DNA of 64,000 nt, taken from positions 12,710,001-12,774,000 of the forward strand of contig JAGIQG010000016.1 in the NCBI GenBank assembly GCA_024679065.1, in the 5' to 3' direction. The translations under genes were made by a program, and so were the position numbers. The stretch comes from Sphyrna mokarran. Lineage: Eukaryota. The notes under the pieces are model-generated. The model made no database searches, was not told the origin of the DNA, and was given only the letters and a program-made list of their open reading frames with translations. This document shows, piece by piece, positions 3,201 to 52,300 of the stretch. Position 1 is the first letter of the stretch, and each line of letters begins with the position of its first letter.

Positions 3201-3511
3201 CTGGGCGACCCCGTAGTGATGCACCCCCACCAACGCCCCCACCCCAACCCCAGGGCCCAACACACTTCACACCCATCACTACAAAACTTTACATAATTTT
3301 TCGCACCATCTACAACTGCCTTTCCTCACACAGTTATTGCCTATCCCCTCCCCCGCACAGCGACCCCCATTCCCCTCCAAAAATGGCCATTCGGGGCGAT
3401 CAGCACCCCCCCACCCGAAGTATATCTTCCCCTCCACACCCTGCCCCCTCTATCTGGAATGATCTGTTCTCCCTCCATACTCCACTCCCCCCACAGAGAA
3501 TGCTCTGGCCT

Positions 3512-3840
3512 CAAAGAACAAAGAATAATACATCAGGGGAGGGGGAAAATAGGACCTTCGGCCCAACGAGACTTCGCCACCATTTTAACATTATGACTGC
3601 CCTCCTCTACTTACGAACGTTGTCTCGACATATTGGGGAAGATTGAGAGAGAACTAATTTAGGGACAACTTGTTACACCAATCAGCTTAAGAGCACGTTT
3701 TTGGGGTGTTGGAGGAAACTGGAGCATCTGGAGAAAACCCACGCAATCACGGGGAAAATGTGCAAACTCCCGCAGACACAGGCCCAAATCCGTATATCTG
3801 CACAACAAACAGTAATAAGCACTGAGCTGTCATGTTGCCC
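3512..3840 (-). mobile_element. V-domain SINE portion (HE1-like) of the composite element
   Basis: Reverse complement reads 'gggcaacatgacagctcagtg...ggagtttgcacattttccccgtgattgcgtgggttttctccagatgctccagtttcctcc' (V core) and ends in a HER1-like tail 'ctcgttgggccgaaggtcct...ttctttgttctttg'. Confidence 0.9.
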
Positions 3841-4540
3841 GTCAGGTGGTCCAGTTTAATCGTATACTAACGATGTGAAGCACTAGGCAACTCTCGAAGC
3901 AACATCCAAGAGCAGGCTTCGCACGACCCACCACATGTATGTCCCATGTCGGTCAACAAGTCGTGAAGTAAAATGTTTTTTTTTTTCCGGGGATTTGTCT
4001 ATTTTAATGTTTCCTAAAACAAAACCTAACACTTCCTCCCTTGTAATTTAAATTTACTCTAATGGATTAACACATCCCTCTGGCAGACTCCCAGTCAACA
4101 AGTCCCTCTCCTTTGTAAATACTGATGCAAAGTATTAATGCCATCAAAAAACATGCAATTCTTAGACTTACATTTACTGAACCCCTCAAAGCACAGAAAT
4201 AAAGCAAGTGAGCCATGGCATATGATGAAAGGTCCATCGGAATCATTTGATTCCCAAGGACGTCGGAAGGCTCTTGATTTTATTTAGAAAAATCCTCCGC
4301 ATCCCTCCATCTCTAGTTCGCTCATGTACCTGTATAAGTAAGTCTCAAACAAACCTAGCTTGCCTGCCTCGACCAGCTTACTTGGCAATGCATTCCAAGT
4401 TCCCACCCCACCTTCTGTGTGAAAAACCTCCCTCTGAATTCCGAATTATACCTCGCTTTTCTCACCCTAAGCTCGTAGCCCCTCGTAATTCTTGTATCCA
4501 ATGCCATCGTCCAACTGTCCCATACCCGATAATAATCTGG
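3512..4540 (-). mobile_element. 5'-truncated CR1 LINE 3' end with V-SINE-containing 3' UTR
   Basis: Minus-strand translation 'TRITRGYELRVRKARYNSEFRGRFFTQKVGWE' is a CR1 ORF2 C-terminus. 3512-3965 aligns with 37338-37776. The tail reads (caaagaa)n on the plus strand. Candidate TSD is tctggcctc (3504-3512) / tctggcttc (4536-4544). Confidence 0.85.
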
Positions 4541-5389
4541 CTTCATTCGTCCATTCCCACCCCGCAAGAGAATGGTCCCTTCCTGCCCTCCCCACCCCGC
4601 AACCTCACCAAGAATTATCTGGCCTCTCTCCATTGTCCCTCTCCGCCGTACATCTGAATCTGTTCCTGCTTCTTCCTCTTGCCCCACCAGATGATATCGG
4701 GCCTCCCTTCTCCCTCGCCCCACTCATCAGGCAACGATCTGACCCGCCTCACCAGCACGACATCCCCCCACTCCCCACACTCCACCCCATCGCGCCACTA
4801 CCACACAATTCAGTCAGAGATCAATTGGAGGTTCTCAACATACCTTTAGAAGCTGGAGCGCCCAAATGGGACTTCCATTTAGCATGTCGATTTCGGCTCC
4901 ATTCTCCATTGGCCAACGCAGTGGTAAAGAGGAAATGCTGAAAATGTTGGACGGGCAATTCATTAATACATTTCATATGCATGTCCATGCATTTAGATCA
5001 CCGTTGTGCCCGTTTCAATTGCAAGTCGAATCGCGTCCATTTCCGGCCTCAGTAAAGTGGTTATCTGTCTAAACATGAACGTGGATGTCGTTAATGATCT
5101 TACGCGCTACTTTGGCACGTTTTCGCACCCGAAAACGGGCGCGATGCAAAGGTTACATCGGGCGCATTATGTCAACGTCTTGCTTTGACTTAAAAACCTA
5201 TATTTGAACTATATTTGAATCGGCTTAGGCAGATATATACAGATGGTATGCACGTATTTTTCCTCGTGGGAATGCTTGGAATCAGGAATGCATCGACTGC
5301 AAATTTGTTTGATCAATACAATAGAGCAATTTAAATGCAAAAAAAAAACCTTCTCGAAAGTAGACTAAAACAATTCAATGTGGCAGTCA

Positions 5390-5904: not shown

Positions 5905-6990
5905 ACCAACTCAGAGAGGTTTGCAGCATAGAAAATAGCATTTTGGCCAAACATGCTCCTCTCCCCCTTTGTTGTTAACCAGATACGAGTTCCAATTACC
6001 CGCCTATGAGCCATACCCTCCATACTCATCTTAACCATGTAACTCTCTGAACACTTTTCAATAGAATTGTACCCACTTCTACTATTACTACTGGTAGGTT
6101 ATTTCAGACACTCACCACCCTTTCTGTGAAAAAAAATAAATGCGCTTTGGGTCCGATAGTCTCTTTCACCTCTCACCTTAAATCAATGCCTTCTAGTTTT
6201 AGATGCCACTGTATTTTGGGGGCAAAATGGTTTTCCAGCTGATCTGTGCCCCTCATCACTTACAGACATCTGCAGATCACTACTAAGCCTCCTATGTTCC
6301 AAATGGGGAAAAACATCGCAAGCTATACAGCCTCCTCTTGTAACTCAAATCTTCAACTCCCGGTCGCATTCTTGTAAATATTTTCTACTTTTTTTTTAAA
6401 TTCTAGTATAATCTGCAATGGGATTATCACTAGTGTATACAGTGTTCCAAACATGATTTTATCAATCTCTTGTACAAGTTCATCAAGAGGTCCATCTCCT
6501 GTATATAATTTTTGACCAATGAAAAGAAGCATACTGAAAGCCTTCTTCACCATTACCTCCACCTGTGACCCCAATTTCAAAGAACAATGGACCTGTATCC
6601 TTTGATATTTTTTTCTTGATAATTCTCCCTATTGCTCTGCCATTAACGGAACAATTCCTACCCTAGTTTGATGCACCAAAGTTCATCAGCTTACATTTGT
6701 TTAATGTAACTCCATTTGCCACTCGTCAACCAACGGACCAATTTACTAAAATCCTGCTGCATTCCGAGATAACCTTCTTTACTGTCCACTGCACCACCAA
6801 ACGTTAAGCCATCCACAGACTTAGGAACAAAGTTCTCGTCAATCCTTAATATAAATGACAAATAACAGCAGACCCAGCACCGATTCCTGAGACATACCAC
6901 TGATCACTGGACATCAGTTTTAAAAAAAAACCTCTATAATTATTTTCTGTCTTCTGTCATCAAACAAATTGTGTCCATCATCATTTGCTT
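5905..6990 (-). mobile_element. CR1 LINE 3' fragment (RT domain end and tail), frameshifted
   Basis: ORFs 6691-6900 ('TFGGAVDSKEGYLGMQQDFSKLVRW') and 6353-6580 ('KLGSQVEVMVKKAFSMLLFIGQ') are typical CR1 RT motifs. A tail-like 'agcatgtttggccaaaatgct' lies near 5940 (reverse complement). Confidence 0.9.
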
Positions 6991-15200: not shown

Positions 15201-16819
15201 TCCGCAATGTTTGCATGAAACCGATTTTCGCTGCTGCTAGCGTTGTACAATTTAGGTTCTTCAGCCTCGTTCATGCCTCAAAGTGATACATTGACAGATT
15301 TAAACCAATTAATTTCTTCTCGTATTGAGGACAGCCCTGACAAGTGAAGTCGATGTTGTCCAATCATAAATGCTGCAAATATTAATTGCCTTTTGTTGAG
15401 AAATTTTGAGCAGCTGGATTGAAATTCAGAGGGTTTTTGAAGTGCATAAGCTACGACAAATGTTAACTCGCAGTGAGTCCTCAACTGACAGAACAAAATA
15501 TTTTAAAATACTTTCATGACGACTTTCATTCATTAAGTCACATTCATTAAAAAAAAGGTAGGCCTTGTTTTGTATTATTATTCCATCACCAAGTTGACGA
15601 CCAGTGGTTGGGTTTATCATTCATCACTTTTTTTGTTCAAAATGCATCTAAAATTTTAATTCCATTGGCCGTGCAATTGATTCAAAAATGCATGAAATTA
15701 CTTATCCATTGTCTACGCAATTATAAGACCTCACGATGAATGCTCATTAATAATTGTGCTTGTTGTAGGCAAAAAAAAAAATACCTCACGGGCTGTTAGA
15801 GAGTCAAAATACAGTGGATTTTATTTCAAAGCTCTGCTGCTCATTCGAGAGCCTTGGAAACAATAGGGACTACCAAACTTTCATAGAATACAAATTCAGG
15901 TGGGCAATTATACATCTGAATCTGAGAGGCAATCATGATTCCAAGTTTTCCATTCCGGCCCGAACTCCAAGTTTCCTTCCTTGGTCGTGATGCAGTTTCA
16001 AATGTAATCACGACTCGACTCACAATCCAGCTGGCAGCTGCAGTCATGATTCTGGCTTAATCTGTCATGATTCAAAACCCTTCTGCAGCAGTACCGGCAT
16101 CGCTGTCTTTGAAGTTGCTTGTGCGATCGTGGCTGTCCCAGCAGGACTAATCCAGTTAAAAGTCGATATCGCGATCTGTCATCAGCAGCTGTCAAATGCC
16201 GGTATCATAATCTACCATTTGTGTAACGATGTCCGACTAACACAAATAGATAAGATTGACAAAGTGAACGAAATAACAGCTACATTAAATTATCTGTCTT
16301 TGTACAAATGAGAGTTAAAACATGTAATACACGTACAAATAACATATTAATGTCAGGTACAATATAAGCTTGAGAAGTTCAGTCATGATGAAGGTTTATG
16401 GTTTTTTTTAGATATTCTAGGTATAAAATGTATTAGCCCTTTCCTTCAGGTACAAAACGCATTCACTTTTTCGCGACTTTATGCATATCTTTCGAGTGTA
16501 AAGTTCAGAAGACGAAACCGTCCAAGTGGATTATTGACAATCCTGGCTGCAGTAGAAAGCCATTTAGAAATGTATGGACATCGTTCCAATTTCATCGTTC
16601 ACTGCATCCCCGACTGGCTTTCCGCACAAGTTCGAACACGTCATTCATGTCGATCCGCATAAACAATAATGCATAGGATCAGTAACATGCAGAAGAACGC
16701 CCATCCGCTGCACTACCATTTCAAAGGAGCGCAGTTCCAGGGTCATTGAACGTGGATCTCACTTCGGTAAAAACCAAGTTATTAGCTGGAATCTGCAAAA
16801 GTTGACACATCTGTCATCA

Positions 16820-17150
16820 TACAATCATAGAATCCCTAAAATGCAAAAGGGGGAATTTAACTCAAGGGATCAGCTCCGATGCACTTACTGTTTATCGTTC
16901 ACATGCATTCTTTCTGGCATGACTCGTCGCCTGAAAGTTCTTATATGGTTAATGCATCTAACCAGCACATCATTGGTCATATATGAAAATTTAATACGAC
17001 GAATCCACCAAAACTGCACATTCTTAGACATAGAGGAACATTTAGTGTGGTCAATTCACCTAAACTGCACAGTTTTCGAATGCCGAAAGAAAACTGAGCA
17101 ATCTAGGGACACCGACATGGGCCCAACGAGAAATTGCACGCTCCATTCAA
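16820..17150 (-). mobile_element. Degenerate V-domain SINE with LINE-derived tail
   Basis: 'tttagtgtggtcaattcacctaaactgcacagttttcgaatgccgaaagaaaactgagca' matches the antisense V core, and 'caatcatagaatccctaaa' resembles the antisense tail. Confidence 0.65.
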
Positions 17151-20079
17151 TAGGTCATTGCGTTGAATTTGTTTTATTTTCTACAATTTGTTGCATTACG
17201 CTATATTTGGAGAATAACTGATTAATGTGTTTCCACTACATAGATTTGTACTTCATTCACGAATATTTTACCGACGAAAATTAAAACGAAAGGACGCAGT
17301 GGGACCAAATTGCGTACCCCCAAAATCAACTGTGTCTAAACTGAAACATGCAAAAAAAAAAAATGCCAGTTCCCGTCGTCGTTTAATGGATGTTGAAAAT
17401 TAGCACGACTAAATCAGTGAGAGCATGTGGAGGCTGATCTTTCGACCACGTTCCGTTTCAGACTTCCGGTCACTTCAGTCTTCCACAGATCACAGTACTG
17501 AACGAAGAATCCGACCGCTGGTTACTCCAACTGTTTCCTTCATTGACAATGTTAGTTCAATAGTAGCTCATCAGCATTGTTTTCAAGGATTTTTTTAATG
17601 CTTTGCTTCTTGAAATTCGTGTTTGTATAATTCGTAATATTGCAATACCAATTACTTCTAGAGGTTATATGTTTATTTTTATCCAGAGAATCATACTCAT
17701 TTCAATTGTTTTTCAACAATAGAAACTCTAACCGGCAAAATGCTAACTGCTACATCATACTTGCTATAACTGGGAGGGATGTAATGTAGACGTGCCAAAG
17801 TTGGACTGGACTCGGCACAATAAGCTTTGGGAGAGCTGTTCTTTCAATTAACCTGATCAAGGACCAGCACTCTGAAAGTTATTTTTTCAAAACAAATCTT
17901 TTCGACTTTACCCCGGTGTTCTGAAGCATTTCAGCAGGAGAGAAATAATCAAGAGAAATTCATATTTTCCCAATCGTCTTCTCAGTACCAGTGCTGTTCC
18001 ATGTGCAAGGACATTTCACCACAGACCTCCAAATAAACGAAATTACTGGTTTCACTACATGGTTGATCTGTGGCGAATTTTACAAGGACTTTTCACAAGT
18101 TTCCCGATATGCTCACAGCAAAATTCAAGGAACGCTGCAAAACAACAGCTAAACGCGGATTCTGAAATATCAACTGCAGCCTACAGAAGGCAAGCAACAC
18201 AATCTTTGAGAGTAGCTTACTGACCCATGTGTCAATTTTTGCACATTCCAACTAATAACTAGGTTTTTTACTGAAGTGAGATCCACATTAAATGTCATAA
18301 ATATTATCTTTATGTTTCATAAATATTGCGAGAATCATAAGCCCTTCAGTTGCAGCGTTGCTTCAAGTTTTCGTGAAGAGCTGACGACTGCGACCTTGTT
18401 GTTTTGAGGGCATGTTTCCAGTTTTTTGTCCAATGCCAGAGCACAGACTACTGTCACAACATGACTGGCATGGTGGCGCACGCACGTACGTTTTGAAAAC
18501 ACTTGCTGCCAAATGGAGCACAAATTACATCTATGAAAACAGACTGACATCAAACAGCCGATGCGTATAATCTTAGAACAAGATACATGTAAATACATGA
18601 AAACAACCCTTGGAATACATACCGTCAGTTTTTTTTTCTCTCTCTGTGAGAAAACGTGCAACTATTTACATTACCAACAGTAATGTGTAGTGCAATGACT
18701 TGTTTTTTTTTTATATATGTGGATAGATTACTTTGCTTCGGTTCCGGGGGGTATTATTTTACTGAGAATACTCGTGTCTTCGAAATCATTTTTTTTTTGA
18801 CAGAACAAGAAATAATTTGCATCAATGTTCATTTTTGTTGTTGTTGTAATTGTGTGTCTTGATTGCAATGCAGGGAAAAAAAATATTTTTTTTTTTCTGA
18901 AAATGACATCGTCAGTATTCCCAGCCTTCTCTCTCACCTAAAAATCTTCCACTTTGTGAAAACGTCCTCAAATTTTCTGACATTTCTGTTACTTATATTA
19001 AGTCTACACCAGAATTTATTGGTTTGGGTCCATCCATGGCTTGCCGCCTTGCTTTCCGACTCATTTTAGCAAAGATTTTTACAATCATTCCTGAGCAAAG
19101 GAACCACTCGTCAGCCTTCACGTCGGGCATTACTTTGTGTCTCCCTAGCTTCGGATATAGGGCACCATAAATATCTCCTGGAATATGCTTGGTATTTTTG
19201 CGGCAGATGTCCGGAAGCATTAACTTCGATTAGATCGATATGTTGCGCCGCGATCAATACGACAAAATGATTTCTAAAGTCATCTATGAATTATAATGGC
19301 ATTGGTGCTTCAATAACATCTCCAATATGTTTCGATGACATTCTTAAAAAAGAAACCACATCAAAATTCAGAGTTAACTACATAGATCGTGCCTCACACG
19401 ACAGATCTGCCATTCTGCACTTCACATCGTAGAATTTCGGACTCCACCCTAACTAAGCACTCTTCTAAATGACTTTGCGCACCAGAGAAACCACCCACAC
19501 ACGGTTATCCAATTCCTTCTTCTCCCGCAACTGGTGATCCGACCCAACTGACACATGTCTCGATCCCGCAATGCTTTTTCAACAAAAGTGGCATGCCCCC
19601 TCACAGTCTGACCTGCGCCCGATCACAATCGCTTTGCTTCAAGAACAGAAAACTACGCCGCCACAACAGCAAAAAAAAAAATACACATCAATGCGTTGCA
19701 TGTATGTAGTGAGTGCCGATCTGGCGTTTATTGTCATTTCCTGCAGCCACACCCGTGTTATCTTCCGTCAATCGCAAATGACATTGATCGCCAATATAAG
19801 AAAAAATTGGCAGACATTCTTCTTTTCATGTTCGGTCTTTGATTATTTTTTTCCCTTTTCCTGTTTTTATCGGTACCAAATTACTTTCTTATAACATTTC
19901 ACGACGCTCGATTGTACAATGGAAAATGCCGAAGAAATATGACATACACCAATTCCAAGTTACGATCTTTCCTAGAATTAACCATGTTGTTTTTATTTTA
20001 ATCACGTTAGCCTCGATGGCTTAGTATACGCCAAAGATGCACGTTTACTTCAACTGGATTTCAGAGACTGGCATAAAAT

Positions 20080-23989: not shown

Positions 23990-24385
23990 ATTAGGGAACG
24001 TGAAGTTGTCCATTCTTAGATGATCGATAGCATGACTATTTGCTATTTAAATATGGATAAAGTATACACGATTCAGACGCACACAGAAATGGGTATTTCT
24101 ATTTACATGAGTCAGAAACAAAATATGAAAGTACCGGCCAATTTATGAATCAAAATTGAATATTGAAATTTATTGTGAGAGAGAATGCGCCGTCAGTTAC
24201 ATGTTTTATAAGTTAAATCCTTTCAGAACTTAATTCTAGTAGTAGGTTCGGTTTTCATCTCCCAACAAAGGGACGAGGTAGCAGGCGTTCGAGGCTGTAC
24301 ATTGAAGGATCATTAGGCTAATTACTAGGTTGAAGTGTCTGTTTTATGAGGAATATGCATCAAGGCTGCGGCGACATCTATTGGA
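23990..24385 (+). mobile_element. Degenerate CR1 ORF2 fragment
   Basis: 'tgaagttgtccatt...ttcatctcccaac...ttcgaggctgtacattgaaggatcattaggctaattactaggttgaagtgtctgttttatgagga' resembles the 'C.V.H...WSP...LE.VQRR..RLI.G...L.YEE' region. Confidence 0.55.
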
Positions 24386-24462
24386 ATGTTGGGGAATGAG
24401 AGCTCATTTTCTAAAACAGCGAAATTCTGTAGGACTGGTGAAGGCCAATGCTGATACTGTTA

Positions 24463-24654
24463 TCATGCTTATATTATTTGCTGTTTGGAGATGCTCTAAA
24501 TTATTCCATTCAGTTTAGTCCTCTTGAATTTATATACGGACGTGAAGTAAGAGGGGCTTAAAAATTTATTCACAGGAAGTTGCTTGGGCCAATATCGGGT
24601 ATGTCGTATTTACATTATGTAGCTGAATTGGGAGAAAGGTTAGCCGGAAGTACA
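24463..24654 (+). repeat. Inverted duplicate of the Gypsy integrase C-terminal segment at 26254-26429
   Basis: The two segments align as reverse complements over most of their length. Translation gives 'FSPLEFIYGREVRG' and 'MSYLHYVAELGERL'. Confidence 0.9.
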
Positions 24655-24949: not shown

Positions 24950-27900
24950 TTTTTTTTCAATAAAATCCGTCAACTATGCCATGACATTATTCAAGTTTGG
25001 TGCAAATCTCTTTTAGAATCCTCTGTAGCCAAGAATCATTATATTTCCTTCTTCGAGGTGGAAAATGTGTAGATTGTCTTTATATTCACAATGGTCTCAT
25101 CAGTACATATCAAATGTTGTGCTGTGAGAATGTAATTTCTGCTACTCAAATTCTGCGTTTTGCCAAGTTAACGACGAACTTTGCCATCCATATCTTTCGG
25201 AGATCTTTGGAAGTTGTTCCATACGATCTTTACATGAATGGTTAAAGGTCGTTAACTACGTTATCAGTAAAATTAGCGAATGCAGCACAACTCTGTCTGT
25301 AACCCTCTGAGAAGTTTTTCGTATGTTTTTCAATCAGAAAGGGAATTAATTTAAATTGCTATAGCTCATTGAGCGTTGCAAAATCAGAAGCTTGTTTCGT
25401 TCTCACTGACAAAAGTACACAAAATATACCGTAAAATAAATCCAACTTTGTAATGTAAATGACTCGTCGTACATTTTATGAAAAAAAAACAATCTTCTGC
25501 TTTCGGATTAGATACGAATCCGTTTTTGTCTCGCTATTCAGCTTCCGATAAAATCCGTAGAGAATTAATGACTACAGTCGGGTTGGGAACAAACGCGATC
25601 AACAAACTCGATTCACCGTCACCTTGTTTCCGTTCCCTCATGTCTTCTTGGAACATCGCTTTCTGAACTTGCGTTGCTATGAGAAGATTAAACAGGTAGT
25701 TGTGTTGTTTTATCGGGACACCATTGCTTACTACAACCTCATGAATTATGTCCCTCCTCCTATGCATACTTTTTTTATAATTTTACGTAGGTCCTCTTAA
25801 AACTGTAACACATTTTTCAATGCAATTCATTGTTCCCGAAAGGGTAGCACATTATCCGATTCCATCCTTAATGAGTTCTTCATTATTCAATTTATTTTGA
25901 AGCACATCAAAATCCAAATTATCGGTGTTTGATTCCTCATGTTGAGTAGCACAAACAAATAACAATTTATCCAGCTCTCTTTCTCTGTCATAATACTTTT
26001 TTGCAGTGTGTTGACATGGTGCGCACTATATTTTTTTTTTCGAGTTGCCATCCTTACCAAACAATTACACAATAGAAACATATGCTCAACCTGATGGACC
26101 CACCACTAACTCATGCTTTCAAGTAATCTCTGACCACTGCTAGTAACTCTAAAATAATAGCCCTTGTAGCTAACCTACCAACTTTCGATGTACTATCTTT
26201 TTTATTGTTTCATTAGGTGATATTCCATCTTCAATTGTTGTCTAGGTAACCCGTGTACTCCGGCTAATCTTTCTCCCAATTCAGATACATAATGTAAATA
26301 TGACATAACCGATATTGATAAAAATATATTTTTAAGCCCCTCTTACTTCACGTCTGTGTATAAATTCTCGAGGACTAAACTGAATGGAATACTTTAGAGC
26401 ATCTCTCACAGCAAATAATATAAATATGAAACCTTTATCCCAATAATTTGTGGAATTATGATAAGAAACCCTCAGCATGATCGTAACCGTCTCATGGTAA
26501 CTTTTCAATGCTTCTTTGGATTCAAGGCAAAGAGTCTGATGCCTAATTTATACATGACCTCTTTAAGTAATTGGGCAGATAAATCGGAACCTTCGTCTGA
26601 CTGAATTCCCTTTCCTATCCAAAACAGTGAAGAAAGCGAGCAAGTCCTCCGCAATCTGATTTTCCTTTAATACCATACTGGAATTGACTCAGAATATTGG
26701 ATAGAGAAATCGATTACGCTAAGCAAAACATTTTTTTTTACATTTTAGAGGGCGGAAAAGCAAAACAAATTATTAACCGGATAAAATGTTCTTCAAATGT
26801 GGTAACTGGCATCAAAGGTGCGGGTATTTTCGCTGTTTGCATTTTTTCCGATTGAGATGGATGACAGGTACGATAAGTTTCAACAGCATTTGTATCTGAG
26901 CCTGAGGGTTCCTCACTCCTGGATGATATTCTGCATGTAATCCAATCGCTATTGGCAATAGTTCCGTCCGATTTCTACCGGCAAAGTCATCGGGGTAACA
27001 TCCTCCTATTTCTTACTTACACTAACCTGACAAGCTCTCTGTGTTGACTTGTTGATTTTATCCTGAAGGTAACAGCATTCTAGAAGACATTCTTGCTCAT
27101 TGTCCGTCGAGGCTTTACGGTATAAATAATTTTGCATCTGATTTATTTGTGGTAACTGCATTAAACTATCAGAACTAAAAACATCTGCCGGATCCTCTGT
27201 TGCTTAGCTTTCTCCCTTACCATGTCATCAAACAGCGTGTTCGCTATCTGACCCTAAACACCTTTATATTTTTTTCGTCTTTTCTCATGACCAGTTTTAA
27301 CGAATGGCTGTGGGATGTTGTCACACAGTTCGAAAGAAAATGTTCCAAGATATGTTTATTTTACATCCTCGTTTCCAAAGTATTATTTTGGCTTTTCCAC
27401 TACAAAATGCATTAAATGCTCCCGTGATCCAGCTTCATTATTATCATGAATAAATGTATTCCTGAAATAGCATTCATTACCGTCACTCCGACTGTATTTT
27501 CCCCAGTGTTGGTTGGACTTTCTAACATTACCTTACACAATGATGTCTACACTTCTCTCTCTTCTCTCATAGATTTCCACTCTAGCGCAATATTTAAGAA
27601 ATAATGCAATTATTCCTATCTCTTACTATCAAAATAAGAGTAGTTTTCGTATCGCTCAACATCTTAACTTTTTCACCTACTCTCCCATTCTACATGAGTG
27701 AATCTCACCACGCAGTGGAAACTTTTGACATACTGAAATCTTTGAACTATTTTCCACTGTCCTGGGTTTTCTTCACACATGATAACCTGTTCCCAGTATT
27801 ATCTACTTTTTTTTTCATTGAAGAATCTCCCTCTTTGCCAATTTCTATGCCCTGTGGAATGACATTTTTGTTTTAGTATCTTGCCTAAAATGAATTAATC

Positions 27901-30819: not shown

Positions 30820-30973
30820 NNNNNNNNNNNNNNNNNNNNNNNNNNNNNNNNNNNNNNNNNNNNNNNNNNNNNNNNNNNNNNNNNNNNNNNNNNNNNNNNN
30901 NNNNNNNNNNNNNNNNNNNNNNNNNNNNNNNNNNNNNNNNNNNNNNNNNNNNNNNNNNNNNNNNNNNNNNNNN
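30820..30973. other. Assembly gap (154 N)
   Basis: Run of N. Confidence 1.
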
Positions 30974-35727: not shown

Positions 35728-37776
35728 GTGATATCGCAATTTCTAGGTACCATTAAAACTGATAAATCTCCGGGGCCTACTGGCATTTATCCCAGGCTGC
35801 TTAGGGAGGTGCGAGATGAAATTGCTGGGCCTCTAACGCAAATCTTTGTCTCTTCCTTGGACACAGGTGAGGTCCGAGAGGACTGGAGAATATCTAATGT
35901 TTTACCGTTGTTTAAAAAGAGTAGTAGAGGTAACTCTGTAAATTATAGGGCGGTGAGTTTGATGTCAGTCGTAGGGAAGCTGTTGGGAGGGAGTCTTAGA
36001 GGTAGGATGTATAGGCACTTAGAGCGTTGCGATCTGATTAGGGATACGCAACATGGATTTGTTAAGGGGAGGTCGTGCCTTACAAATCTGGTAGAATTTT
36101 TTGAGGAGGTGACGAAAACGGTCGACGAAGGGCGAGCCGTTGATGTCGTCTATATGGATTTTATTAAGGCGTTGACAAAGTCCCTCATGGAAGGTTAGTT
36201 GAGAAGGTCAAGGCTCAGGGGATACTAGGACAGGTAGCTAGATGGATATGTAACTGTCTTGGTAATAGGAGACAGAGAGTAATAGTGGAAGGGTGTTTTT
36301 CTAGCTGGAGGTCGGTCACTAGTGATGTGCCGCAGGGGTCGGTATTGGGACCTCTTCTATTTGTAATATATATATAAATGAGTTGGAAGAGGGAGTAAGT
36401 GGAGTGATCAGCAAGTTTGCAGGCGATACAAAGATGGCTGGACTTGCGGATAGTGAGGAGCATTGTCAGGCGATGCAGCAGGACATAGATACGCTGGTAG
36501 CTTGGGCAGACAGATGGCACATGCAATTCAATCCTGATAAATGTTAGGTGATGCATTTCGGGAGAAAGAATGTAGGGGGGAGGTGTATGACAAAGGGTAG
36601 ACCTGTTAAGAGTATAGGAACGCAGAGGGACCTGGGGGTGCAGGTGAACAAGTCTCTGAAGTTGGCAGAGCAAGTGGAGAAGGTTATGAAGAAAGCATAT
36701 AGCATGCTAGCCTTTATAGGAAGGGGTATAGAGTACAAGAGCTGGCCTTTAGTGTTGCAGTTGTATAAATTTTGGTTACACCTCATTTGGAATATTGCGT
36801 CCAGTTCTGGTCGCCCTACTACCGGAAGGACGTGGAGACTCTAGAGAGAGTGCAGAGGAGGCATACGAGGATGCTGCCTGGTATGAAAGGTCTGAGTTAC
36901 GAGGAGAGGTTAGGCAAATTGGGACTGTTTTCCTTAGAGTGACGTAGACTCAGAGGAGATGTAATAGAGATGTACAAGATTATGAGGGGTATAGATAGAG
37001 TAGACAGGGTTAAACTCTTTCCTAGGATGGACTCGAATAGCACGAGGGGTCACGGGCTTAGGGTGAGGGGGGTAAGGTATAATTTGGATGCCAGATGGAG
37101 TTTTTTTCACACAGAGGGTGGTCGGGGTATGGAATGCGCTGCCATGTAAAGTGGTGGAGGCAGGTACTCTGGAGTTATTTAATAAATACTTAAATGGACA
37201 CATGAACAGAATGGGAACGGAGGGGTATAGAAAACTGACTTAAAGTAGGGATCGTGAGCCTTGGGAGTCCCTGGGAAGTGTGTAAATAGATGATGATATT
37301 GATGTACTTGTTTTTATCCTACAGCTGCTTTGGCCCACTTTGTTGTCTAACGAGGGGCACACACGCGATGGGTCGTGAGAGGGCTGCTCTAGGATTTTTT
37401 TTTTTCGAGAGTATCCTAGTGCTTCACGTCGCTAGTGTACGCTTGACTTGGACTGGGCAACACGACAGCTCAGTGACTATCGCTGTCCTATGCAGATAAA
37501 TGGAATTGGGCCTGCGTCTGTGGAAGTTTGCGCATTCTCCCCCTGCTTGCATGGGTTTTCTCCGGGTGCTCCGGTTTCCTCCCACATCCCAAAGATGTGC
37601 TCTTAGGCTAATTGGCAAAACAAATTCTCCCTAAATTGTCTCAAATTTGTTTTTTAATCCATAGGTCTATAATCATGGACAGGGATCCCGGGTAGAGATG
37701 GGAACATCGAGATTGCGGCGCGGGCTCGTTGGGCCGAAGGGCCTGTTTCCCGTGCTGTTTTCTTCTTTGTTCTTTG
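35728..37776 (+). mobile_element. 5'-truncated CR1 LINE (RT domain, frameshifted) with long 3' UTR ending in a V-SINE
   Basis: ORF 35728-36198 contains 'KSPGPTGIYPRLLRE', 'QHGFVKGRSCLTNLVEFFEEVT', 'VDVVYMDF'. Downstream are '[12 protein letters not shown]', 'KFAGDTK' and 'FFTQRVVGVWNALP'. ORF2 ends near 37240; the tail is (ttctttg)n at 37763-37776. This is the best-preserved element in the window. Confidence 0.97.
37455..37776 (+). mobile_element. V-domain SINE portion (HE1-like) of the composite element
   Basis: 'gtttgcgcattctccccctgcttgcatgggttttctccgggtgctccggtttcctcccacatcccaaagatgtgc' is the V core, followed by the tail 'gggctcgttgggccgaagggcctgtttcccgtgctg'. Confidence 0.92.
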
Positions 37777-40636: not shown

Positions 40637-40791
40637 NNNNNNNNNNNNNNNNNNNNNNNNNNNNNNNNNNNNNNNNNNNNNNNNNNNNNNNNNNNNNNNN
40701 NNNNNNNNNNNNNNNNNNNNNNNNNNNNNNNNNNNNNNNNNNNNNNNNNNNNNNNNNNNNNNNNNNNNNNNNNNNNNNNNNNNNNNNNNNN
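40637..40791. other. Assembly gap (155 N)
   Basis: Run of N. Confidence 1.
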
Positions 40792-42356: not shown

Positions 42357-43390
42357 TTGATGGAAGAGAGATCTGATAGAGCTGATGAGAGGCAGCCAGT
42401 CGATTTTGCTGGCTTGGACATAAAACAGCGTTTCGATATTGTCACACCACAGGCATTGGTGTGTAAAGTTATGGAAGATTGGATTGAACCACAGTTGTTG
42501 ATCAGATATAATAATACTTCTGGTAAAGGACGTAAATGCAATACGTCCATATTTGTCCATATTGTCGAATTGGGTGGGATACTGAGGGAAATCTGGACAA
42601 GCTGAGTGCGAAAAAAAAATGCACGTGGAATATCAGACGAATAAATGTGAGGTTATTCAGTTTTGTAGCAAAAATTACGAATGATCAAAATATGATAAAT
42701 TAGGAAATGAGCATTCAACGAGACCTTACTTTTCTTTTTAACAATCCCTGAATGGATGCATTTGGGAAAGAATGCTAAAATATGTTCGCTTATGTTGAGA
42801 ACAGGTTTGAGTATAGGATCAGAGATATTCATCCTCTTGTTATACAGGGCCTTTCTGAGGCCACTCCTGGAATCTTTTGTGCCGTTCTGGTCTCCTTACT
42901 TCAGTAAAGATTTTCTCGTGAGTCGACCAAATGTCACCAGACTGATTCGTGTATAGCAAGACTGAAATATGACGACATGTTGAATTAGCTGGGATTTTGT
43001 TTGCTGTGATTCCAAAGGAAGGAGTCGTATCTCATAGAATTGTCTTGAAATTCAACATTAACGACACAAGCTAGACGAAGAGTGACAGGTGAGCATAATC
43101 AGACAGCAGAGTCTAAGGATATTGGGCAAATCATTTAATACTGTGACCAGGTTGCATTTATTCACTCAAAGACTGACGCACCTATGAAATTTGCTAATAT
43201 CGAAAGTTCCTGAGGACAACATAGTGTACATTTTCAGGATGGAGTTACATGTGGCCCTTTGGGCGAAAGGAATCACAAGAACTTGTGTAGTTGAATTATG
43301 CTAACGAATTGGATGATCCACCATGTTAATCACGAAACAACAGAGCAAGCTGGAACATGAAACGACCTTTTCTTGTTTAGAAGTAATGTG
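42357..43390 (+). mobile_element. Old, internally deleted CR1 LINE 3' fragment
   Basis: 'DERQPVDFAGLDIKQRFDIVTPQALVCKV' matches the 'VDVVYLDFQKAFDKVPH' motif, and 'LLYRAFLRPLLESFVPFWSPY' matches 'LY.ALVRP.LEYC.QFWSP'. Confidence 0.85.
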
Positions 43391-43779
43391 TTCATTAGTT
43401 TCTATATTGCCATCAAGCCTCGCTTAAGAGGAGAAAAAAAAACTCAATATAGATTTAAAAGCTTTGCGTTCTGTGCATTTGCATTTGATTTTTGAAGGGA
43501 ATTCGGATGGTAAACATCCAATCATATTATTTGAGTCAAGTATCTGACATCTGGATACACCCACTACAATGCCGCTTTGATTCCTGTATGTCTGCATCTA
43601 GGACCAAAGAACGTCAAATGTCTACAATTCAGGGAAGCCCATTCTGCCATCAGGATTGGACCTACTTTCTGAAAGAACATCAGAACCAAGACCAAACTTC
43701 ATCTTACCCTCATATCACTGCGCATTTACCTCACAAATCCCTTTAATCTAAGCACGCTGCAATATTAATGGGCTAGTTA

Positions 43780-43930: not shown

Positions 43931-44911
43931 AATCGCAACGCTGAAATATTTCGGGAGAGTTACATGAAATGCATTGCTTATTAACGTCAATTCTTTCATG
44001 CTGTTTTCATTTTCTAAATGTTTGAAAAAATCAACGCATTTCAGACAATGTTTAGATTCATAGAATTGTGACAGCACGAAATGCCGAATTCAACGCTGAG
44101 CTGCAAGTTATCTCCTTTCATCGACACCCAATTGAAAGCTCATTCCACGGCTGCATTGCGATATTCTCCCAGCTCAATACGAAAATAATTTGCGTTTTGC
44201 TTATCCCATCAGCAGGAATGAAATTTAAATCCATTTCTCTCCCTGTATGTTCACAGGGACTATCTCACCTCCTGTTGTTCTTCTTTCACTCCGGATGTAT
44301 ACTTCAATGAAGCGATGGAACTATAATCAAAACACCTTGGGAATTATTCCACTTCGTCAACTTTCATAACCTATTAAGATCTTGTTCTCCCGTAGGCCTA
44401 GAAATTGCCACAAAAATGTTTCATTGTATCCAGGAAAAATCGTTTGCTTTTTTCAACTTTGTCAACAATAAATCAGGAGCCAATACTGAAGTCAAAAAAA
44501 TATGTTTAGCAGTTCCAAAATCTTGCAGCCTCTCAATTGAAAGATTCAAATTGTACTAAATCCTCCAGGACATCTGTACCTCGGTTACGGTACACCATTC
44601 TGTTCTATTCTGATTTATTTAATACAATACAATACCACAGTGAATGGAGCAGAAAGCCATTACGCACTCCAACTATTCATAGTAAATCAATTTATTTACC
44701 GAGTTTGATCCATTAAGCTGATCCAATAAGAAAAAAAAAATTTTCCCATTTGTTGTCAACATTCCAAAATCATATCAAGGAATGTGAGCTATTTAGCAAT
44801 GAACTAATTTGTTGATCAATTCGGAGACGTTCACAAGAGGATAGTTCCTTTGCTGCTCTTCCCTAATTCAAATAAAATTAATTCGCTTTCAGAAGATGAG
44901 TTTCGTGCGAA

Positions 44912-45120
44912 CTGTGGTACAATCCTTAGCTTTGCCACCTCAATGTGCCAGGGGCCCAGCGACCATTTACGCACTGTCTTTGGGGATTCTGCACGTTTTC
45001 CCCTTGTCAGAGAGGAGTTCCTCCACGTCCTCTGATTTCCTCAAACAGTTCAAAAGACGTGAGGAATAGTTGCATTGGTCATGCCAGCATGCCCCTCAGT
45101 GTATGTGAACAGGAGCTGGA
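44912..45120 (+). mobile_element. Degenerate V-domain SINE
   Basis: Head 'ttagctttgccacctcaatgtgccaggggccc' and core 'ctgcacgttttccccttgtc...ttcctcaaacagttcaaaagacgtg...attggtcatgc'. Confidence 0.7.
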
Positions 45121-45959: not shown

Positions 45960-46640
45960 ATAAGGTCCCCACATGTGAATCATGGTCAAATTCTTGCCTT
46001 TTCTCTTCCACTGCAAACCCTTTCGAATCAAAATAATCATCTATTATTTTGATGAAAGCTTCAATTGTATCTATGTCCACTATACGTCAATTCAGAGACT
46101 GGAAGGATTCACTGTTCTGGAACGATTTTTTTTCATAACTAATTTTCTAATATTGTAAGTCAACTTAAATCTTGAAGTTTCCATTTACCTATGCAATGAG
46201 GCGCCTCTTCATTTTCAAAACTTCGATAAGATCCACCAGTTGTCTTTTCCTCTGCACTGTGAAAATTCCCAAAGTATATTTGCAAATAGAGTGAATCATC
46301 TCACCACCTTGTCTGTAAATATATTCTAGAACCATTACTGTGCGTTCACATTTTTATTTCCGATGTTTGTCGACGAGAACTATATTCAGCACTCAGCTGA
46401 CCTATAAATGCTTTCCTGTGCAAGCTCAGCATAACATAATCACTGTTATACTTTGTGTTGTCATTAATAGTGCTGAGGATATATTATGTTTTATTAACAT
46501 TCCTTTGAAAATGTTTGGGCAACCGAATTAGCTGTGCATATCGAAGTCGATATCCCTGTACGCCTAGAGCCTCTCTACAAGTTTAGTCCTTATTGTATAT
46601 TCCAATTGCCTTTTTTCCCATCAGGATAAAACACCTGATA
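45960..46640 (-). mobile_element. Degenerate CR1 3' fragment
   Basis: ORF 45799-46080 begins 'DTIEAFIKIIDDYFDSKG', a CR1 ORF2 C-terminus. The upstream sequence is also CR1-like. Confidence 0.7.
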
Positions 46641-46919
46641 ATGGTCCTTCTTGAGCTTCATTTGCGTTAAATTTGCGCACGGGGCAAGTTTGTTTTTTAA
46701 ATGTTTTAAACGTTCTGCTCGACAATTCTCACTTTTTATATTATTTGAAATTTTCGAATCAACAAAGCACTTCGGAAGCGTCTATTATATTCCAATGTAT
46801 AGACCATTAACATATATCAGGACAAGTGATTCCCCCAATACAAACAGAAATGAACTTGACAACAAATCTACATGTAGCTGGCAAAACAAAATCACAAAAA
46901 CTGCCTTTCTTTTGCTTGA

Positions 46920-47297: not shown

Positions 47298-48699
47298 ATT
47301 TTACTAAACTGAGTCTTCTTTTCAGCATTTGTTTAAGTTTTCCAGTGCACAATTACGTTTCGTGAAAGATAGAAAGCAGATGTCAGTTGTTTTATTGCGT
47401 CCTGTTTCAACAAACGAGCACCAAGTTCCACGTCAAATGCGATGGCGATTGTTTTGGACCATTGTATATGATCCCGCGCTGCTGAAATAGATGCAATACT
47501 CGGAACATACTTTAAATTGTTAAAATTAGACTGACAGTTCTACTCCATCTGAACTCTCCATTCTTCATTATTAAATCTTTTAATGGATCAATTAAAGTAC
47601 AGACATTTGGCAAGGAAATGTTCTTTAGCATCCACAAATTAATACAATTCATAACATATTCTGGTGGGGATAACTGAATGGACTTTGACAATAGCACTTC
47701 AGTTTCATCCTCTGCGCCCTTTTGATCATGATCAACAGTGCTACTTAAATTGGTGGATTTGAATGTTGCTTTTTTGCGAATTGCTTCTTTTTGAAATGCT
47801 TCACTCTTGAAAACTGCATTAATTTAACTATACTAATGTCTTGACTTTGTGTAATTTTTGCAATTTTTCACGTTACATCTGGTTGTCTACTTTTCACGAT
47901 AGACAATCTTCTATCAAAGTGACTTCTACAAAACATGGACATTCATGCATTAATGCAATTCATTTTCAAAGTGTTTTGAGGTCTCACATTTCTGCTATTT
48001 GTTAAGATCCCAGTTTATCATTGCAATTTTGGCAAATTAGATGAACTGAATGGATTTTTTTTCTCTAAGTCACTTCCACATTTTTCTGCAGGACATCATA
48101 ATATGACATTTTATATATATGGCCATTTCCATGAAGTTAGATGAACCACACCGTCTTGTCTTTTTTTTTTTTGCTTTTATTCAATGTAAAGTTTGACAAA
48201 TGGCATCCACATTCTTCTGCCTAAATTGTCGTGATAAGGAATGTGATTGATTACTATATGACCAGTTAAGAAATGTCTTGGTATGGATACATGTCGAACA
48301 CATTGTGTTTTTCAATATTTGCAGAAACTACATAAATTCTATGACATTATTTCTTAATTTGATAAATTATACCGGTTGTTTATTTGGCAATTCAAATGAA
48401 AAGGCAAAAACACAATGAGCTTCCTGGAGCAAAGCAACATGAACTGATTGCAACTCACTAACATGGCTTGCATATGGAAATTCAAAAGTTGTCTGATAAA
48501 CGCCATGCCAGAATTAACATCTTTTTTGTTTTAAATGTAATTGTATTACACCTTCCAGCATGCATTTTGAAAGTTCCGATACAGATGGGAAATATAGAGT
48601 TAATGGCAGATCCCTTCAGAGCAGTGATAGCCATAGGTATCTGGGTCCGCAGGTACACAGATCACTGAGCGTGACAAACATTTAGCGAATACAGATATA

Positions 48700-49325
48700 A
48701 ATGCATTCAGTAGCATTGCCTTGGTCACCAGGGGCACTGAGCTTGTAACTGGCAACCCGTGCCAAAAGCCTGAGTTAGGCCGCACTTGAAATGGCATGTT
48801 TACTTCATGTCACCCAAATACCAAAAAGATGTGAAGGCTTTGATGATGGTACAGAAATGATTACCAGAATGTTGTCTGGTATTGGGGGCATTAGCTCTGA
48901 AGACAGGATGGGAATAAATGTTTTTTCTTCTTACTGGGACAACAGAGGTTGAGGGGCGATCTGATAGATGTCTGCAAGATTATTAGCGGCATGGGCAGAG
49001 TGGATCGTCACGAGCATTTTGTTTCCAGCATGGAAGAATCAATTATCAGGGTGAATAGAATTAGAGTGCAATGGACAACGTTTAAAAGAGGTGTATTATA
49101 ACAATGTCTTTTTTTTACACATGGAGTAATGAGGACCGGAAACTCACTGCATGGGAACGTAGTGTAGCCACGTAAGATGGTGACAATTAAGGGATGCATT
49201 GATAGATACATTAATGGGATAGGAATACACAACACTAATCCCCAAATGAGTAATGGAGATTAGTTCGGACAGGCAGATTGAGCGGCAAGGCTTGAAGCAC
49301 CAATTCTGTGCCGTAATTTTCTTTT
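48700..49325 (+). mobile_element. CR1 LINE 3' fragment with tail
   Basis: 'gttaggccgcacttga...gtacagaaatgattaccagaatgttgtctgg...gaggttgaggggcgatctgatagatgtctgcaagattat', then 'ttttttacacatggagtaat' and a tail-like end. Confidence 0.85.
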
Positions 49326-52300
49326 TTTTTGTCCACTGCTCCTTTATAATCCACAAAAGTTCTTCTTGACTTTGATTTAATTATTTCCTCCGTCCGGTTT
49401 GATTGATCCTCTGATTTTTGACTACATATCAATTGAAACAGTCTAAAGCTGGTTGACATTTTTTTCTTATTATTTGAAAAGGAAAGTCTGCCAAATCCCA
49501 ATCACTTATCATTCAAAATTTGTAACTACCAGGTGTAAGAGATACAATTGTGTGGAAAGGTAGTGATGTTACATTATGATGGTTGCCATGAAAATCCATA
49601 ATCTGTTGCAAGAATTAATAAACGTAATGAAGGTTACTCAATGGTGCAATTCATTATTTCATAAATATGAAACCGAGTTGTGTGCAGTGAATATTTACAT
49701 AAAAGGATTCTGGCACCATTAGGTGTGTAGTTAGTAACGTTAGAATACCAAATTGGAAATTATTAGGACAATTTAAAATAATTTGAAATCATTTTTACTT
49801 TGCAATACATATTTTATGTTCAAGCATCTTTATCATCAATTGCTTGCAGCTGAAACCCAGTGTCAACACAGACACATGCTTCCACAGTTTAATGATTTAA
49901 ATATCATTACTTCCTTTCTGCCTTCAACGTCTTTTTTAAACTAATGTGATGCCAATTCCACCTTTCCAAGAGTAGTCGAGAAGTTACAATGAAGAAAATG
50001 CAGCGGATGTTCTTGTTAGAATAGGTCAATATATTCAAAGCAACCAGTCCATCAATGTTTATCTCAATGTAGATAAGAGAAAATGGAATAGTCCAGAACA
50101 AACATCATCCTGACAATACGAAATATTTTGATGGACCAATGTACAATTCAGTGAAGAGTTCCATGTGTTAGCTCTTTTAGAGCTATCGCAAGCTACTGGG
50201 ACAGAGAAAGAGTTTGCTATATAATACCATGCAAAATTTGTACACTTTTTCTAAGAAGCAGGAGGTAGATACTACATAGCAGCCTGTAAGACTGTTATAG
50301 GTGGCAGAAGAAATAAGAATGTAGAACCCGTGTATGGAGTATGTCAATACTCAAACTTCCCTCAACAACAAAAAGAAACTTCTCGAGAATCAATTCACTG
50401 TCCTACTTTCCTTATTGTTTGCGAAAAGCTGAGTATTTTCTGGATCACTTTATTTATATCATCGAACCTGCTTTGTAAATTTGCATTTTTCTTTTCGAAT
50501 CACCCAAATCTGTTGAAATTAGTGCATGAATTCTAAATGATCATAATATCATGTCCATTGTTGAACACTGACACTGAACCAGACGGATGGCAGACAGAAT
50601 AAAGCCTTTTGGCTCGTGTAAGAATGGTATCTCCTATGTCTTTGGAAGATTCATATGATAAGTGCTGATACAAATTTGTTTATTTAAAACTTAACATGGA
50701 ATGTTTTATGCATTAATACATGATCTGTATTTCAGAGAAATTGTAAACAATGCAGATTTTTATTGTTTTAGAACGGTTTGCTACGTGATATTAATTTGGA
50801 CTTGCGATACGATCTTAACCATAGAGTTGGAAAGACCCTTGCAGACAGAAGGTGCTAACATATGTAATTGTGTGAATCAAAAAGAAAATATTGCCAATGC
50901 CGGAATCCGAAACAAATACTGAAAATTGCTGAAATATCTCAATAGCATCCGTGGTTTGAGTATTTAAGTATTTGCGTACGTTTGTCAGCGATACATTGGT
51001 AGAGTTAGTCGTCAGCTGAACTATTTAGGTGAGAGAATAGGTACATATCGGTCCTGATTTTACCACTAAGTGATACCTGTTTTTGCAAGCGAAAACATGT
51101 TTAAGGCGAGCGTGAGGCGAGTAGCACCATCCTCTTTGAGACAAATCTCAAAAAAGTAGCCACCGATGGTTGGGGGAAACCTTTAATGATGATAAGGTGT
51201 TTAAATTAAAAGCCCTAATATAAAACTTGTGAACACTAAACATTAAGTTGGAAAAAAAAGGTATATTGTGTCCATCGCCCATGCAACAATGTGCAACCAC
51301 AACATCCTAACTTGGCTTACCAGTACGTCTCGGTGTCTCCCAAAAATGCACACCAGACGAGGTAGGGCCAGGTGCTCTGTTTCTTGTGATGTGCATAGCA
51401 GCGTCCTCTGAAGGCCCTGCAACTTGAGGGCCCTGACGGTTTTATAGGATCTGACGTTTCCATGACACTCTCTTAATCCTGCTGTCCTGGAGATGTGCCG
51501 ATGTTGGGAGCGGGGTTTCACAACGTGTAGTCACAGCCACAGTCTCTCGAATGAAGGCATGCGTTCCAGTCCTTCCTGCTCGCTGGATCACTCAATGGGA
51601 CAGTAGTGCTTCTGCAGTGAGATGCCATTGGTGTCACCATTTCCTGCCTGTCTGGGTGGGCCACCTGAGCCCTATCTATGGTGGTGGAGCCCTCTGCGAT
51701 GGTCAGTTGAGTGGGACCAAATGCCACACTCTGCAGCATAATAAAAATAACCATTGTGCGACTGGTTTGTTTTTTCACGGCCTGCTTCCATAGCTCGCTG
51801 TGTCTCAGTGCTGCCCTTTAGGTCTTTGCAACTCTGCAGTCATGGTCATCATGGTCATCTGTGAATGGACCATACCTTCAAGTGCTGAAGCCATAACTCG
51901 TTTTGCCTCAGCACTGTCCCACTGGATATGCATAAAGTTCTTGAGGCTTTCTGCCATGGGCTGCAGAATTCGTGAAGCCTTTCCTGTCCTGTCCTCAGCA
52001 ATGGCCCACTGTGGCTCTGCCATGATTGTCAGGGACTCTCCGGTGGCCCGCTGTGGCTTGACGATCACTTTGAGGTGCCATCTGATATAAACCCTCATCT
52101 CAACGCTTCTGGAGACCATATGCCTCTTTTCCTATCACATTCACGTAACTGTAAAGACACCGCCTATAGTTCAATCTCATATTTCTCTCCAGGACTTCCC
52201 CCGCAACGAGTTCAAGGCACAAACTGCGCAAATGTATATGTCTCGTACATCTCATTTAACACCCCCCCCCCACCACCACCACCACCACTACCACCACCGC

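Follow-up and report, generated by a model that had tools for sequence, protein, structure and literature searches.

A CR1-type LINE with a V-SINE-like 3′ end, seen as two copies in a 64-kb window

The window, a 64-kb stretch of animal DNA (38% G+C, with two N gaps) that was analyzed as a whole, contains two copies of a composite element in which the end of a CR1 LINE is followed by a linker, a degenerate head, a V-type SINE core, and a CR1-type tail. Copy A occupies positions 35728–37776 of the plus strand, and copy B lies at about 4505–3512 of the minus strand (Table 1). We consider it quite probable that the composite of A and B moved as one unit, of which two copies are present in one 64-kb window. 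With slightly better than even confidence, we further propose from the sequences that A and B are old copies of an autonomous CR1 subfamily of the elasmobranch type, the 3′ end of which consisted of the linker and a V-SINE with a dead promoter.

Self-BLAST of the window gave six off-diagonal HSPs, three of which link A and B (37042–37776 on the plus strand and 4486–3512 on the minus strand), and this pair is the sole long interspersed match in the window. Two short inverted duplicates are also present elsewhere in the window. The order common to A and B is the end of CR1 ORF2, a post-stop block, the linker, the head with the V-type core, and the tail. The scores of these blocks were judged against dinucleotide shuffles (n = 500; n = 200 for the ORF2 end), and no shuffle was as good as the alignment of the ORF2 end (139/193 identical), the post-stop block (22/27), the linker (85/111; 37340–37453 in A and 3959–3849 in B), the head and core (149/182), or the tail (55/67). 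The predicted composite of LINE and SINE in two copies was thus recovered as five blocks of shared order, none of which was equaled by any shuffle, and the junction strings quoted with the prediction were found in the sequence as given. The minus-strand copy had been placed at 3512–4540; the same order was indeed observed there, and the 5′ limit was shifted, as the ORF2 homology runs from near 4500 and not from 4540.

Table 1. Features of copies A and B in the window
Feature	Position	Strand	Basis
A: 5′-truncated CR1 ORF2, RT domain to C-terminus	35728–37243	+	tblastn with P0002; translation
A: ORF2 stop	37241–37243	+	translation
A: post-stop UTR	37244–37339	+	first block (37251–37277) common with B, remainder weakly so
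A: linker (114 bp)	37340–37454	+	85/111 with B
A: degenerate SINE head	37455–37507	+	A-box-like site (2 mismatches), without B box
A: V-type SINE core and conserved stretch behind it	37508–37637	+	77% to L001/L002
A: variable spacer	37638–37709	+	at chance level against B
A: CR1-type tail, stem-loop then short T-rich repeat; element 3′ end	37710–37776	+	fold, alignment
B: last ~70 codons of CR1 ORF2	4284–4505	−	139/193 to A; P0002 residues 895–950; translation
B: ORF2 stop	near 4286–4284	−	translation
B: post-stop UTR, homologous to that of A	4209–4283	−	shuffle test
B alone: 248-bp extra segment	3962–4208	−	absent from A
B: linker	3842–3961	−	alignment to A
B: degenerate head (A-box-like site, without B box) and V-type core	3656–3841	−	alignment, box scan
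B: spacer and CR1-type tail, same end base as A	3512–3655	−	tail 55/67 to A

The ORF2 of A is interrupted by two in-frame stops and by shifts of frame at four points. Five tblastn HSPs align it with residues 462–960 of the protein P0002 (349/512 identical), and it is collinear with this intact ORF2 over about 500 codons. P0002, to which this ORF2 is closest, is an intact protein with APE and RT domains (Pfam Exo_endo_phos and RVT_1); the fragment of A alone matched RVT_1 at an E-value of 0.0055, below the curated cut-off. Its record assigns P0002 to Carnobacterium and to a contig of 3,047 bp, and we presume that its source is host DNA rather than Carnobacterium. In a tree built from a 145-residue RT stretch with 23 rows, which we picked from protein searches, the ORF2 of A grouped with elasmobranch CR1 proteins with a support of 85/94, a value under the starred threshold. 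The group has 14 rows, including P0002, seven named shark or ray proteins, and five others, and the CR1s of birds and turtle are placed apart from it. Judged by its ORF2 sequence, the element is a canonical CR1-clade LINE of the elasmobranch type.

At the ORF2 end, A is 72% identical to B and 64, 58, and 55% identical to the three other CR1 ends in the window; a five-row DNA tree of the ORF2 ends did not resolve a grouping of A with B. The K2P distances between copies range from 0.17 to 0.37, which shows that the family is old. Both A and B are dead and lack the APE domain through 5′ truncation, and no copy of full length connects this 3′ end with an intact ORF. A distinctive C-terminus of ORF2 was considered as a mark of the family and rejected: the end of A resembles that of P0002, yet the ends of close relatives vary. 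When the last 47 residues of A were used as the query, none of the six candidates was borne out. The matches of the search with the ORF2 C-terminus were swamped by bird CR1s, and a search of proteins clustered at 50% found distant relatives alone (33–52%).

The distance from the stop codon of A to the SINE-like part, which begins at 37455, is 211 bp, in agreement with the UTR of about 210 bp that had been predicted. Between 37244–37339 of A and 4283–3960 of B, the score was 47, compared with 26.7 ± 4.2 for the shuffles (0/500 as good), and 37281–37339 of A by itself was at chance level (90/500). Neither blastn nor nhmmer detected a third copy of the linker in the window, and at both sites the linker sits between ORF2 and the core. 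An Rfam search of the UTRs of A and B gave nothing below an E-value of 5.7. Since the predicted fold of the linker is strong in A (z = −2.5; 1/200 shuffles) and ordinary in B (z = −0.65; 37/200), we claim no conserved fold.

The homology of the linker was as predicted. The linker is not collinear between the two copies: B possesses 248 bp extra between 4209 and 3961. This segment is composed of about 70 bp without a recognized match, an internal fragment of ORF2, and an A run. The ORF2 fragment (4134–3988) is in the same sense as the element and corresponds to residues 425–472 of P0002 (26/49 identical, E = 2e-7); its end reaches into the region in which A begins, possibly by chance. An assignment of the first ~70 bp to further ORF2 was tried and found no support. 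A direct repeat of 5 bp (6/7 if one mismatch is allowed) flanks the segment, and A has a single copy of it at the homologous junction. The 248 bp may have been gained by B, through a subsequent insertion or a template jump, or lost from A by microhomology deletion. The traces of such a deletion in A would resemble those of an insertion accompanied by target duplication in B.

Both heads are preceded by the common linker, unlike stand-alone SINE insertions, which have unrelated 5′ flanks. The heads were scanned with the A-box and B-box consensus and compared with four contigs in bacterial assemblies (L001–L004), which were found by the A/B core motif and are host-DNA-like in appearance. The best match to the B box has four mismatches in both A and B, compared with 0, 1, 0, and 2 mismatches in L001–L004, and there is no B-box site with two or fewer mismatches in either head. 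The A-box-like site, which has two mismatches, is located 87 bp (A) and 89 bp (B) before the core motif; in L001–L004, the A box is located 104, 104, 104, and 105 bp, and the B box 60–61 bp, before the motif. The heads of A and B are thus 15–18 bp nearer to the core than those of the four free comparators, a difference that bears only indirectly on a shortening relative to true HE1, since L001–L004 are not known HE1 copies and a decayed free SINE copy at ~44.9 kb also has no recognizable B box (A shows a 16-bp gap against that copy). In a global alignment to L001, a gap of 18–20 bp falls over its B box in both A and B. The head of B is preceded by 7 bp that are absent from A.

No tRNA was called by ARAGORN in the tRNA search, no Rfam tRNA match appeared even at E-values up to 10, and no Rfam match across the window reached the gathering score. 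When the heads were compared with those of L001 and L002, 1767/2000 and 1406/2000 shuffles were as good for A, and 101/2000 and 293/2000 for B. The core is 77% identical to L001 and L002 over 106–107 bp (E = 2e-15 and 3e-13, respectively; 0/2000 shuffles as good), a length that includes 30 bp matching by construction of the search pattern. We take the core of A and B to be the V domain, and HE1 may be the appropriate element label for their SINE part. The length of the V domain is given as about 80 bp in a section of PMC4824008. The original prediction had described a whole V-SINE with a tRNA-like head. The core and the tail stand, a tRNA origin of the head was not borne out, and "whole V-SINE" is too strong. 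The SINE part is best described as a core plus a tail behind a degenerate head; it resembles the 3′ part of a V-SINE and, as a candidate free SINE, failed the promoter test.

The spacer that follows the core in A (37641–37715) is no more similar to B than shuffles are (240/500 as good). The element then ends in a short repeat without poly(A), and the last base of this tail repeat is the limit of the A/B homology. The predicted fold of the A tail is −26.9 kcal/mol (z = −3.71; 0/200 shuffles), that of the B tail is no better than shuffles (z = 0.15), and five tails together gave a weak consensus fold, with a compensatory change in 3/11 pairs. Five CR1 3′ ends and four matches to the V-type core are present in the window. 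In two plain CR1 copies, 6970–5910 (minus strand) and 48548–49330 (plus strand), about 60 bp separate the ORF2 end from a related tail, and the core is absent; a third CR1 copy, at ~42.4–43.4 kb, is more decayed and likewise without the core. In comparisons with the plain copies at 48548–49330 and 6970–5910, 0/1000 and 12/1000 shuffles were as good for the 3′ end of A, and 55/1000 and 58/1000 for that of B. The 3′ ends of A and B did not match the copy at ~42.4–43.4 kb (315/1000 and 934/1000, respectively), and the A tail matched a solo tail at 60066 (0/1000). In both A and B, a CR1 tail between ORF2 and the head and LINE sequence past the tail are absent. We also looked for a duplicate of the ORF2 terminus in front of the tail and found none (149–914/1000 shuffles as good), which makes a SINE that brought its own tail and a core inserted ahead of the LINE tail inseparable.

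The boundaries of the two copies provide insight into how they arose. The 3′ ends of A and B coincide at the tail, and the 5′ ends are about 1.3 kb of ORF2 apart, a pattern in which the 3′ end is constant and the extent of 5′ truncation varies. Homology was detected neither between the 3′ flanks (432/500 shuffles as good) nor between A and the sequence upstream of the ORF2 match of B (225/500). B is nested in a GC-rich repeat, and this repeat is absent around A. There is no target-site duplication for A; in B, a 9/10 repeat is found at 4545–4536 and 3513–3504, and a third similar unit is present in the host repeat at 4608–4626. The common 3′ end, the differing 5′ ends, the unrelated flanks, and the location of B inside a repeat are explained better by two retrotranspositions than by DNA duplication. 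The shared linker and the shared shortened head imply that the fusion occurred once, before both copies, and the junction has unrelated flanks in both of the two linker copies in the window. The proposal that the element retrotransposed as one unit is therefore supported by the shared order, linker, B-box-less head, and 3′ end, together with the differing 5′ ends and unrelated flanks. Homologous flanks, which had been named as the mark of a segmental duplication, were not observed.

On the basis of this anatomy, we propose the following origin. The RNA of the subfamily would have ended in the ORF2 stop, a UTR of ~210 nt, the V-SINE remnant, and the CR1-type tail. A master CR1 may have taken up a V-SINE, in the same sense, at its 3′ end, either by insertion of the SINE into or just past the UTR followed by read-through or by a template switch. 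With an identical type of tail on the SINE, the reverse transcriptase of the LINE would be able to start at the SINE end; reverse transcription would have been primed by the LINE enzyme at the SINE-borne tail, and the composite would have spread in the form of a single transcript. The SINE promoter would have been dead at the time of the fusion or lost soon after it, and the B box was probably gone by the time the lines of A and B separated; the passenger SINE would hence not have been transcribable alone by Pol III. More speculatively, the loss of the B box may have been favored, since each LINE copy would otherwise release a competing SINE RNA. Capture of the SINE by the LINE that it parasitizes, as the original prediction had it, is the likeliest polarity, though an inferred one.

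A broader form of this proposal is put forward tentatively: an abundant, once-autonomous, and uncatalogued elasmobranch CR1 lineage may have swapped its 3′ end for that of its parasite SINE, with the Pol III promoter of the SINE silenced by deletion of the B box and the V core selected within the LINE RNA. The basis for selection of the core is the identity between the two copies, which is 133/186 (72%) at the ORF2 end and 156/187 (83%) in the core and tail (Fisher p = 0.006). The greater divergence of the ORF2 end is a hint that the masters were separate and the core was conserved, or else that free SINEs brought about conversion.

Possible but rather doubtful is a second explanation, in which a dead CR1 fragment was located upstream of a V-SINE that was likewise dead, forming a non-autonomous composite, and a Pol II read-through RNA with the SINE tail at its end served active CR1s as a template in trans. 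Such a composite would be a family, or a few 5′-transduced copies, that never coded its own enzyme. The similar anatomy, the common 3′ end, and the unrelated flanks are predicted by this explanation as well. In addition, the differences between the ORF2 ends of A and B at codon positions 1, 2, and 3 (15/60, 16/60, and 22/59) gave no significant third-position excess in a test for separate active masters (p = 0.12; p = 0.01 for the A–C pair as a control), and the out-of-order ORF2 fragment of B overlaps the 5′ start region of A, as if derived from a rearranged template. However, A is collinear with an intact ORF2 over a length of about 500 codons, and an ORF2 end more diverged than the core and tail fits diverging masters better than a frozen template. 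The two copies in 64 kb also point to a large family, with a Poisson range of 3.8–113 per Mb if the window is typical, an estimate that is biased upward because the pair was chosen for its presence in the window. We retain the autonomous subfamily as the preferred reading.

It is unlikely that A and B result from independent insertions, in which a CR1 subfamily had the linker as part of a long native UTR and a V-SINE landed separately in each copy. Remnants of both CR1 and V-type elements are available in the window, and the 7 bp before the head of B, absent in A, would be accounted for. Against this, both heads lack the B box and have a common shortened spacing, the orientation and position are alike in A and B, and neither a CR1 tail between ORF2 and the head nor LINE sequence after the tail is present. 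Similarly improbable is an origin of both copies from a single chance neighborhood of CR1 and SINE, whether through inverted duplication of the DNA nearby or through gene conversion. The inverted arrangement of A and B, 32 kb apart, and the short inverted duplicates elsewhere in the window are compatible with it; however, the homology does not extend past the final base of the tail repeat, A and B have unrelated sequence on either side, the divergence is uneven along the unit, and a different repeat surrounds B. A reverse polarity, in which the core was native to the LINE 3′ UTR and was taken up by V-SINEs, the "head" being ordinary UTR, would agree with the lack of significant tRNA or SINE-head similarity and with LINEs as known SINE-body donors (PMC5786205, in part), but is very unlikely given the A-box-like site at the expected position of the head, the other CR1 copies in the window without the core, and the occurrence of V-SINEs from vertebrates to cnidarians and bivalves, far beyond this CR1 lineage, as described in a portion of PMC4824008.

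Further copies were sought in other sequence collections. A scan of bacterial and archaeal genome contigs for P0002 yielded 70 pattern matches, none of which was confirmed. The core-motif scan of bacterial and archaeal contigs gave four loci, none with the linker or with a tblastn match to the three CR1 proteins listed, and plasmids and phages contained no further composite copy. A literature search found no description of a CR1 with a V-SINE 3′ end, a negative result that is weak since the matching was by exact words and "3 UTR" matched poorly. Excerpts of PMC5786205 contain no CR1/V-SINE case, and its supplement is without HE1, CR1, or V-SINE; two of the three supplementary files of PMC4824008 gave no match, and excerpts of PMC1513397 and PMC13295347 contributed nothing about such a composite. 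In excerpts of a 2026 survey of CR1 (bioRxiv 10.64898/2026.01.13.699120), SINE is mentioned once, historically; the supplements of this survey list 1003 full-length elements and may bear on the novelty of the element.

According to parts of PMC5786205 and PMC3747384, the traffic described in stringent pairs is that of the LINE tail, and sometimes the 5′ UTR, into the SINE. A LINE lineage spreading with the core and tail of its partner SINE would represent borrowing in the opposite direction. The persistence of the V and other conserved SINE cores is presented as an open question in a section of PMC6887750. If the core was conserved inside a LINE transcript that had no Pol III promoter, it would act in the fate or reverse transcription of the RNA and not in SINE transcription. 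In the broader form of the proposal, modules would flow from SINE to LINE within a stringent-type pair, which would offer a natural test of what the V domain, for long without an explanation, contributes to a retrotransposing RNA. According to the 2026 survey (bioRxiv 10.64898/2026.01.13.699120), CR1-group elements account for 22–34% of elasmobranch genomes, and composites of this kind would be annotated as a separate LINE and SINE, raising SINE counts. Chimeras are common among transposons, and so frequent a family may already be present in repeat libraries as an unremarked consensus.

Several known systems can be compared with the composite. In the HER1/HE1 system, the LINE and the SINE share the tail alone, and HE1 moves by itself from its own Pol III promoter. 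The elasmobranch CR1-type ORF2, the V-type core, and the shared stem-loop tail are points of likeness to this pair; the difference is that the core and a head remnant are here inside the 3′ end of the LINE, behind a 210-bp UTR and without a B box. BovB is a LINE lineage of the RTE clade, found in tetrapods, with SINE-derived termini. The presence of SINE sequence at the termini of a LINE is thus shared with BovB, which differs in its clade and in its hosts. The pairing of the HER1 LINE with the HE1 V-SINE of sharks and rays appears in a table of PMC3747384, and a section of the same paper describes target-primed reverse transcription of CR1-group LINEs from a 3′ tail that is common to their SINE partners and stringently recognized.

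Part of PMC5753468 outlines that LINE lineages can exchange their UTRs for sequence unrelated to them and that a composite built from older elements is able to move as a single RNA; L1 and SVA resemble the present case in these respects. L1 is, however, of the poly(A)-dependent, relaxed type (PMC3747384, in part), SVA is non-autonomous, and neither is a stringent-type LINE that adopted the end of its own SINE. Passages in PMC5786205 and PMC5499810 indicate that LINE and SINE modules recombine, probably via template switching, and the exchange of SINE modules is noted in parts of PMC5499810 and PMC4824008. In a comparison of Repbase LINEs with SINEs, RTE and Vingi were the sole donors of SINE bodies (PMC5786205, in part). 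In these SINE bodies derived from bipartite LINEs, the flow was from LINE to SINE and involved RTE and Vingi, whereas it would here be from SINE to LINE and involve CR1. The nearest precedent for the composite, by analogy, is MER6/MER6A, a Mariner-derived MITE carrying a headless V-SINE (PMC6887750, in part). As in the composite, a promoterless V-SINE remnant was spread by another transposable element; the head of the MER6 SINE is fully lost and the SINE is cargo, whereas in the composite the partner LINE acts as carrier and replication would be signaled by the SINE end. The composite is real, and MER6 and the replacement of UTRs in L1 are precedents for it.

Three older CR1 copies that lack the V-type SINE core served as controls for the CR1-SINE composite, and fainter CR1 traces were seen near 982-1146, 24223-24386, 46204-46841, and 63587-63689. 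The window also contains two decayed free SINE remnants and a solo tail, the latter being an insertion with extreme 5' truncation. In copy B, the second, minus-strand copy of the composite, the UTR carries an extra segment whose end overlaps the ORF2 region at which copy A, the 5'-truncated plus-strand copy, starts. Stretches related to the GC-rich repeat hosting copy B were found at 59053-59420, 51041-51142, and 53907-54111 of the window.

Features located in the window and in contigs of bacterial records
Feature	Location	Strand	Remarks
Older plain CR1, control	5910-6970	-	no core
Older plain CR1, control	~42370-43400	+	no core
Older plain CR1, control	48548-49330	+	no core
Decayed free V-type SINE remnant	17026-17138	-	no linker or ORF2 upstream
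Decayed free V-type SINE remnant	~44905-45100	+	no linker or ORF2 upstream
Solo CR1/SINE-type tail, about 50 bp	60066-60116	+	3 copies of 7-bp unit at end
Extra 248-bp segment, copy B UTR	3962-4208	-	contains internal CR1 ORF2 fragment and A run
GC-rich repeat, host of copy B	~2990-3511 and 4541-5200		internal degenerate units, short palindromes
Assembly gap (N run)	30820-30973		
Assembly gap (N run)	40637-40791		
SINE-like element	L001 58-200		A and B boxes intact; contig in bacterial MAG record
SINE-like element	L002 2465-2636		A and B boxes intact; contig in bacterial MAG record
SINE-like elements	L003 and L004, around 2501-2530		A and B boxes intact; contigs in bacterial MAG records

Two short inverted duplicate pairs, 24463-24654 versus 26254-26429 (83% identity) and 16744-16816 versus 18221-18294 (86% identity), are each separated by about 1.5-1.8 kb and may possibly be old DNA transposon ends or local inversions. 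A tandem repeat (2 copies of a 116 bp unit, 74% matches) lies at 55030-55258. Neither a long ORF outside the repeats nor an Rfam family (gathering score) was found in the 64,000-nt window.

The four contigs L001-L004, which were retrieved with a motif from the core of the two copies, are probably animal host DNA, since they carry SINE-like elements with both promoter-type boxes preserved; two tRNA matches are additionally present on L001. The database entry for P0002, the ORF2 reference, assigns it to Carnobacterium and places it on a contig of 3 kb; its presence in that assembly is probably contamination by host. The protein is an intact CR1 ORF2 of 966 aa, and its closest relatives are shark proteins.
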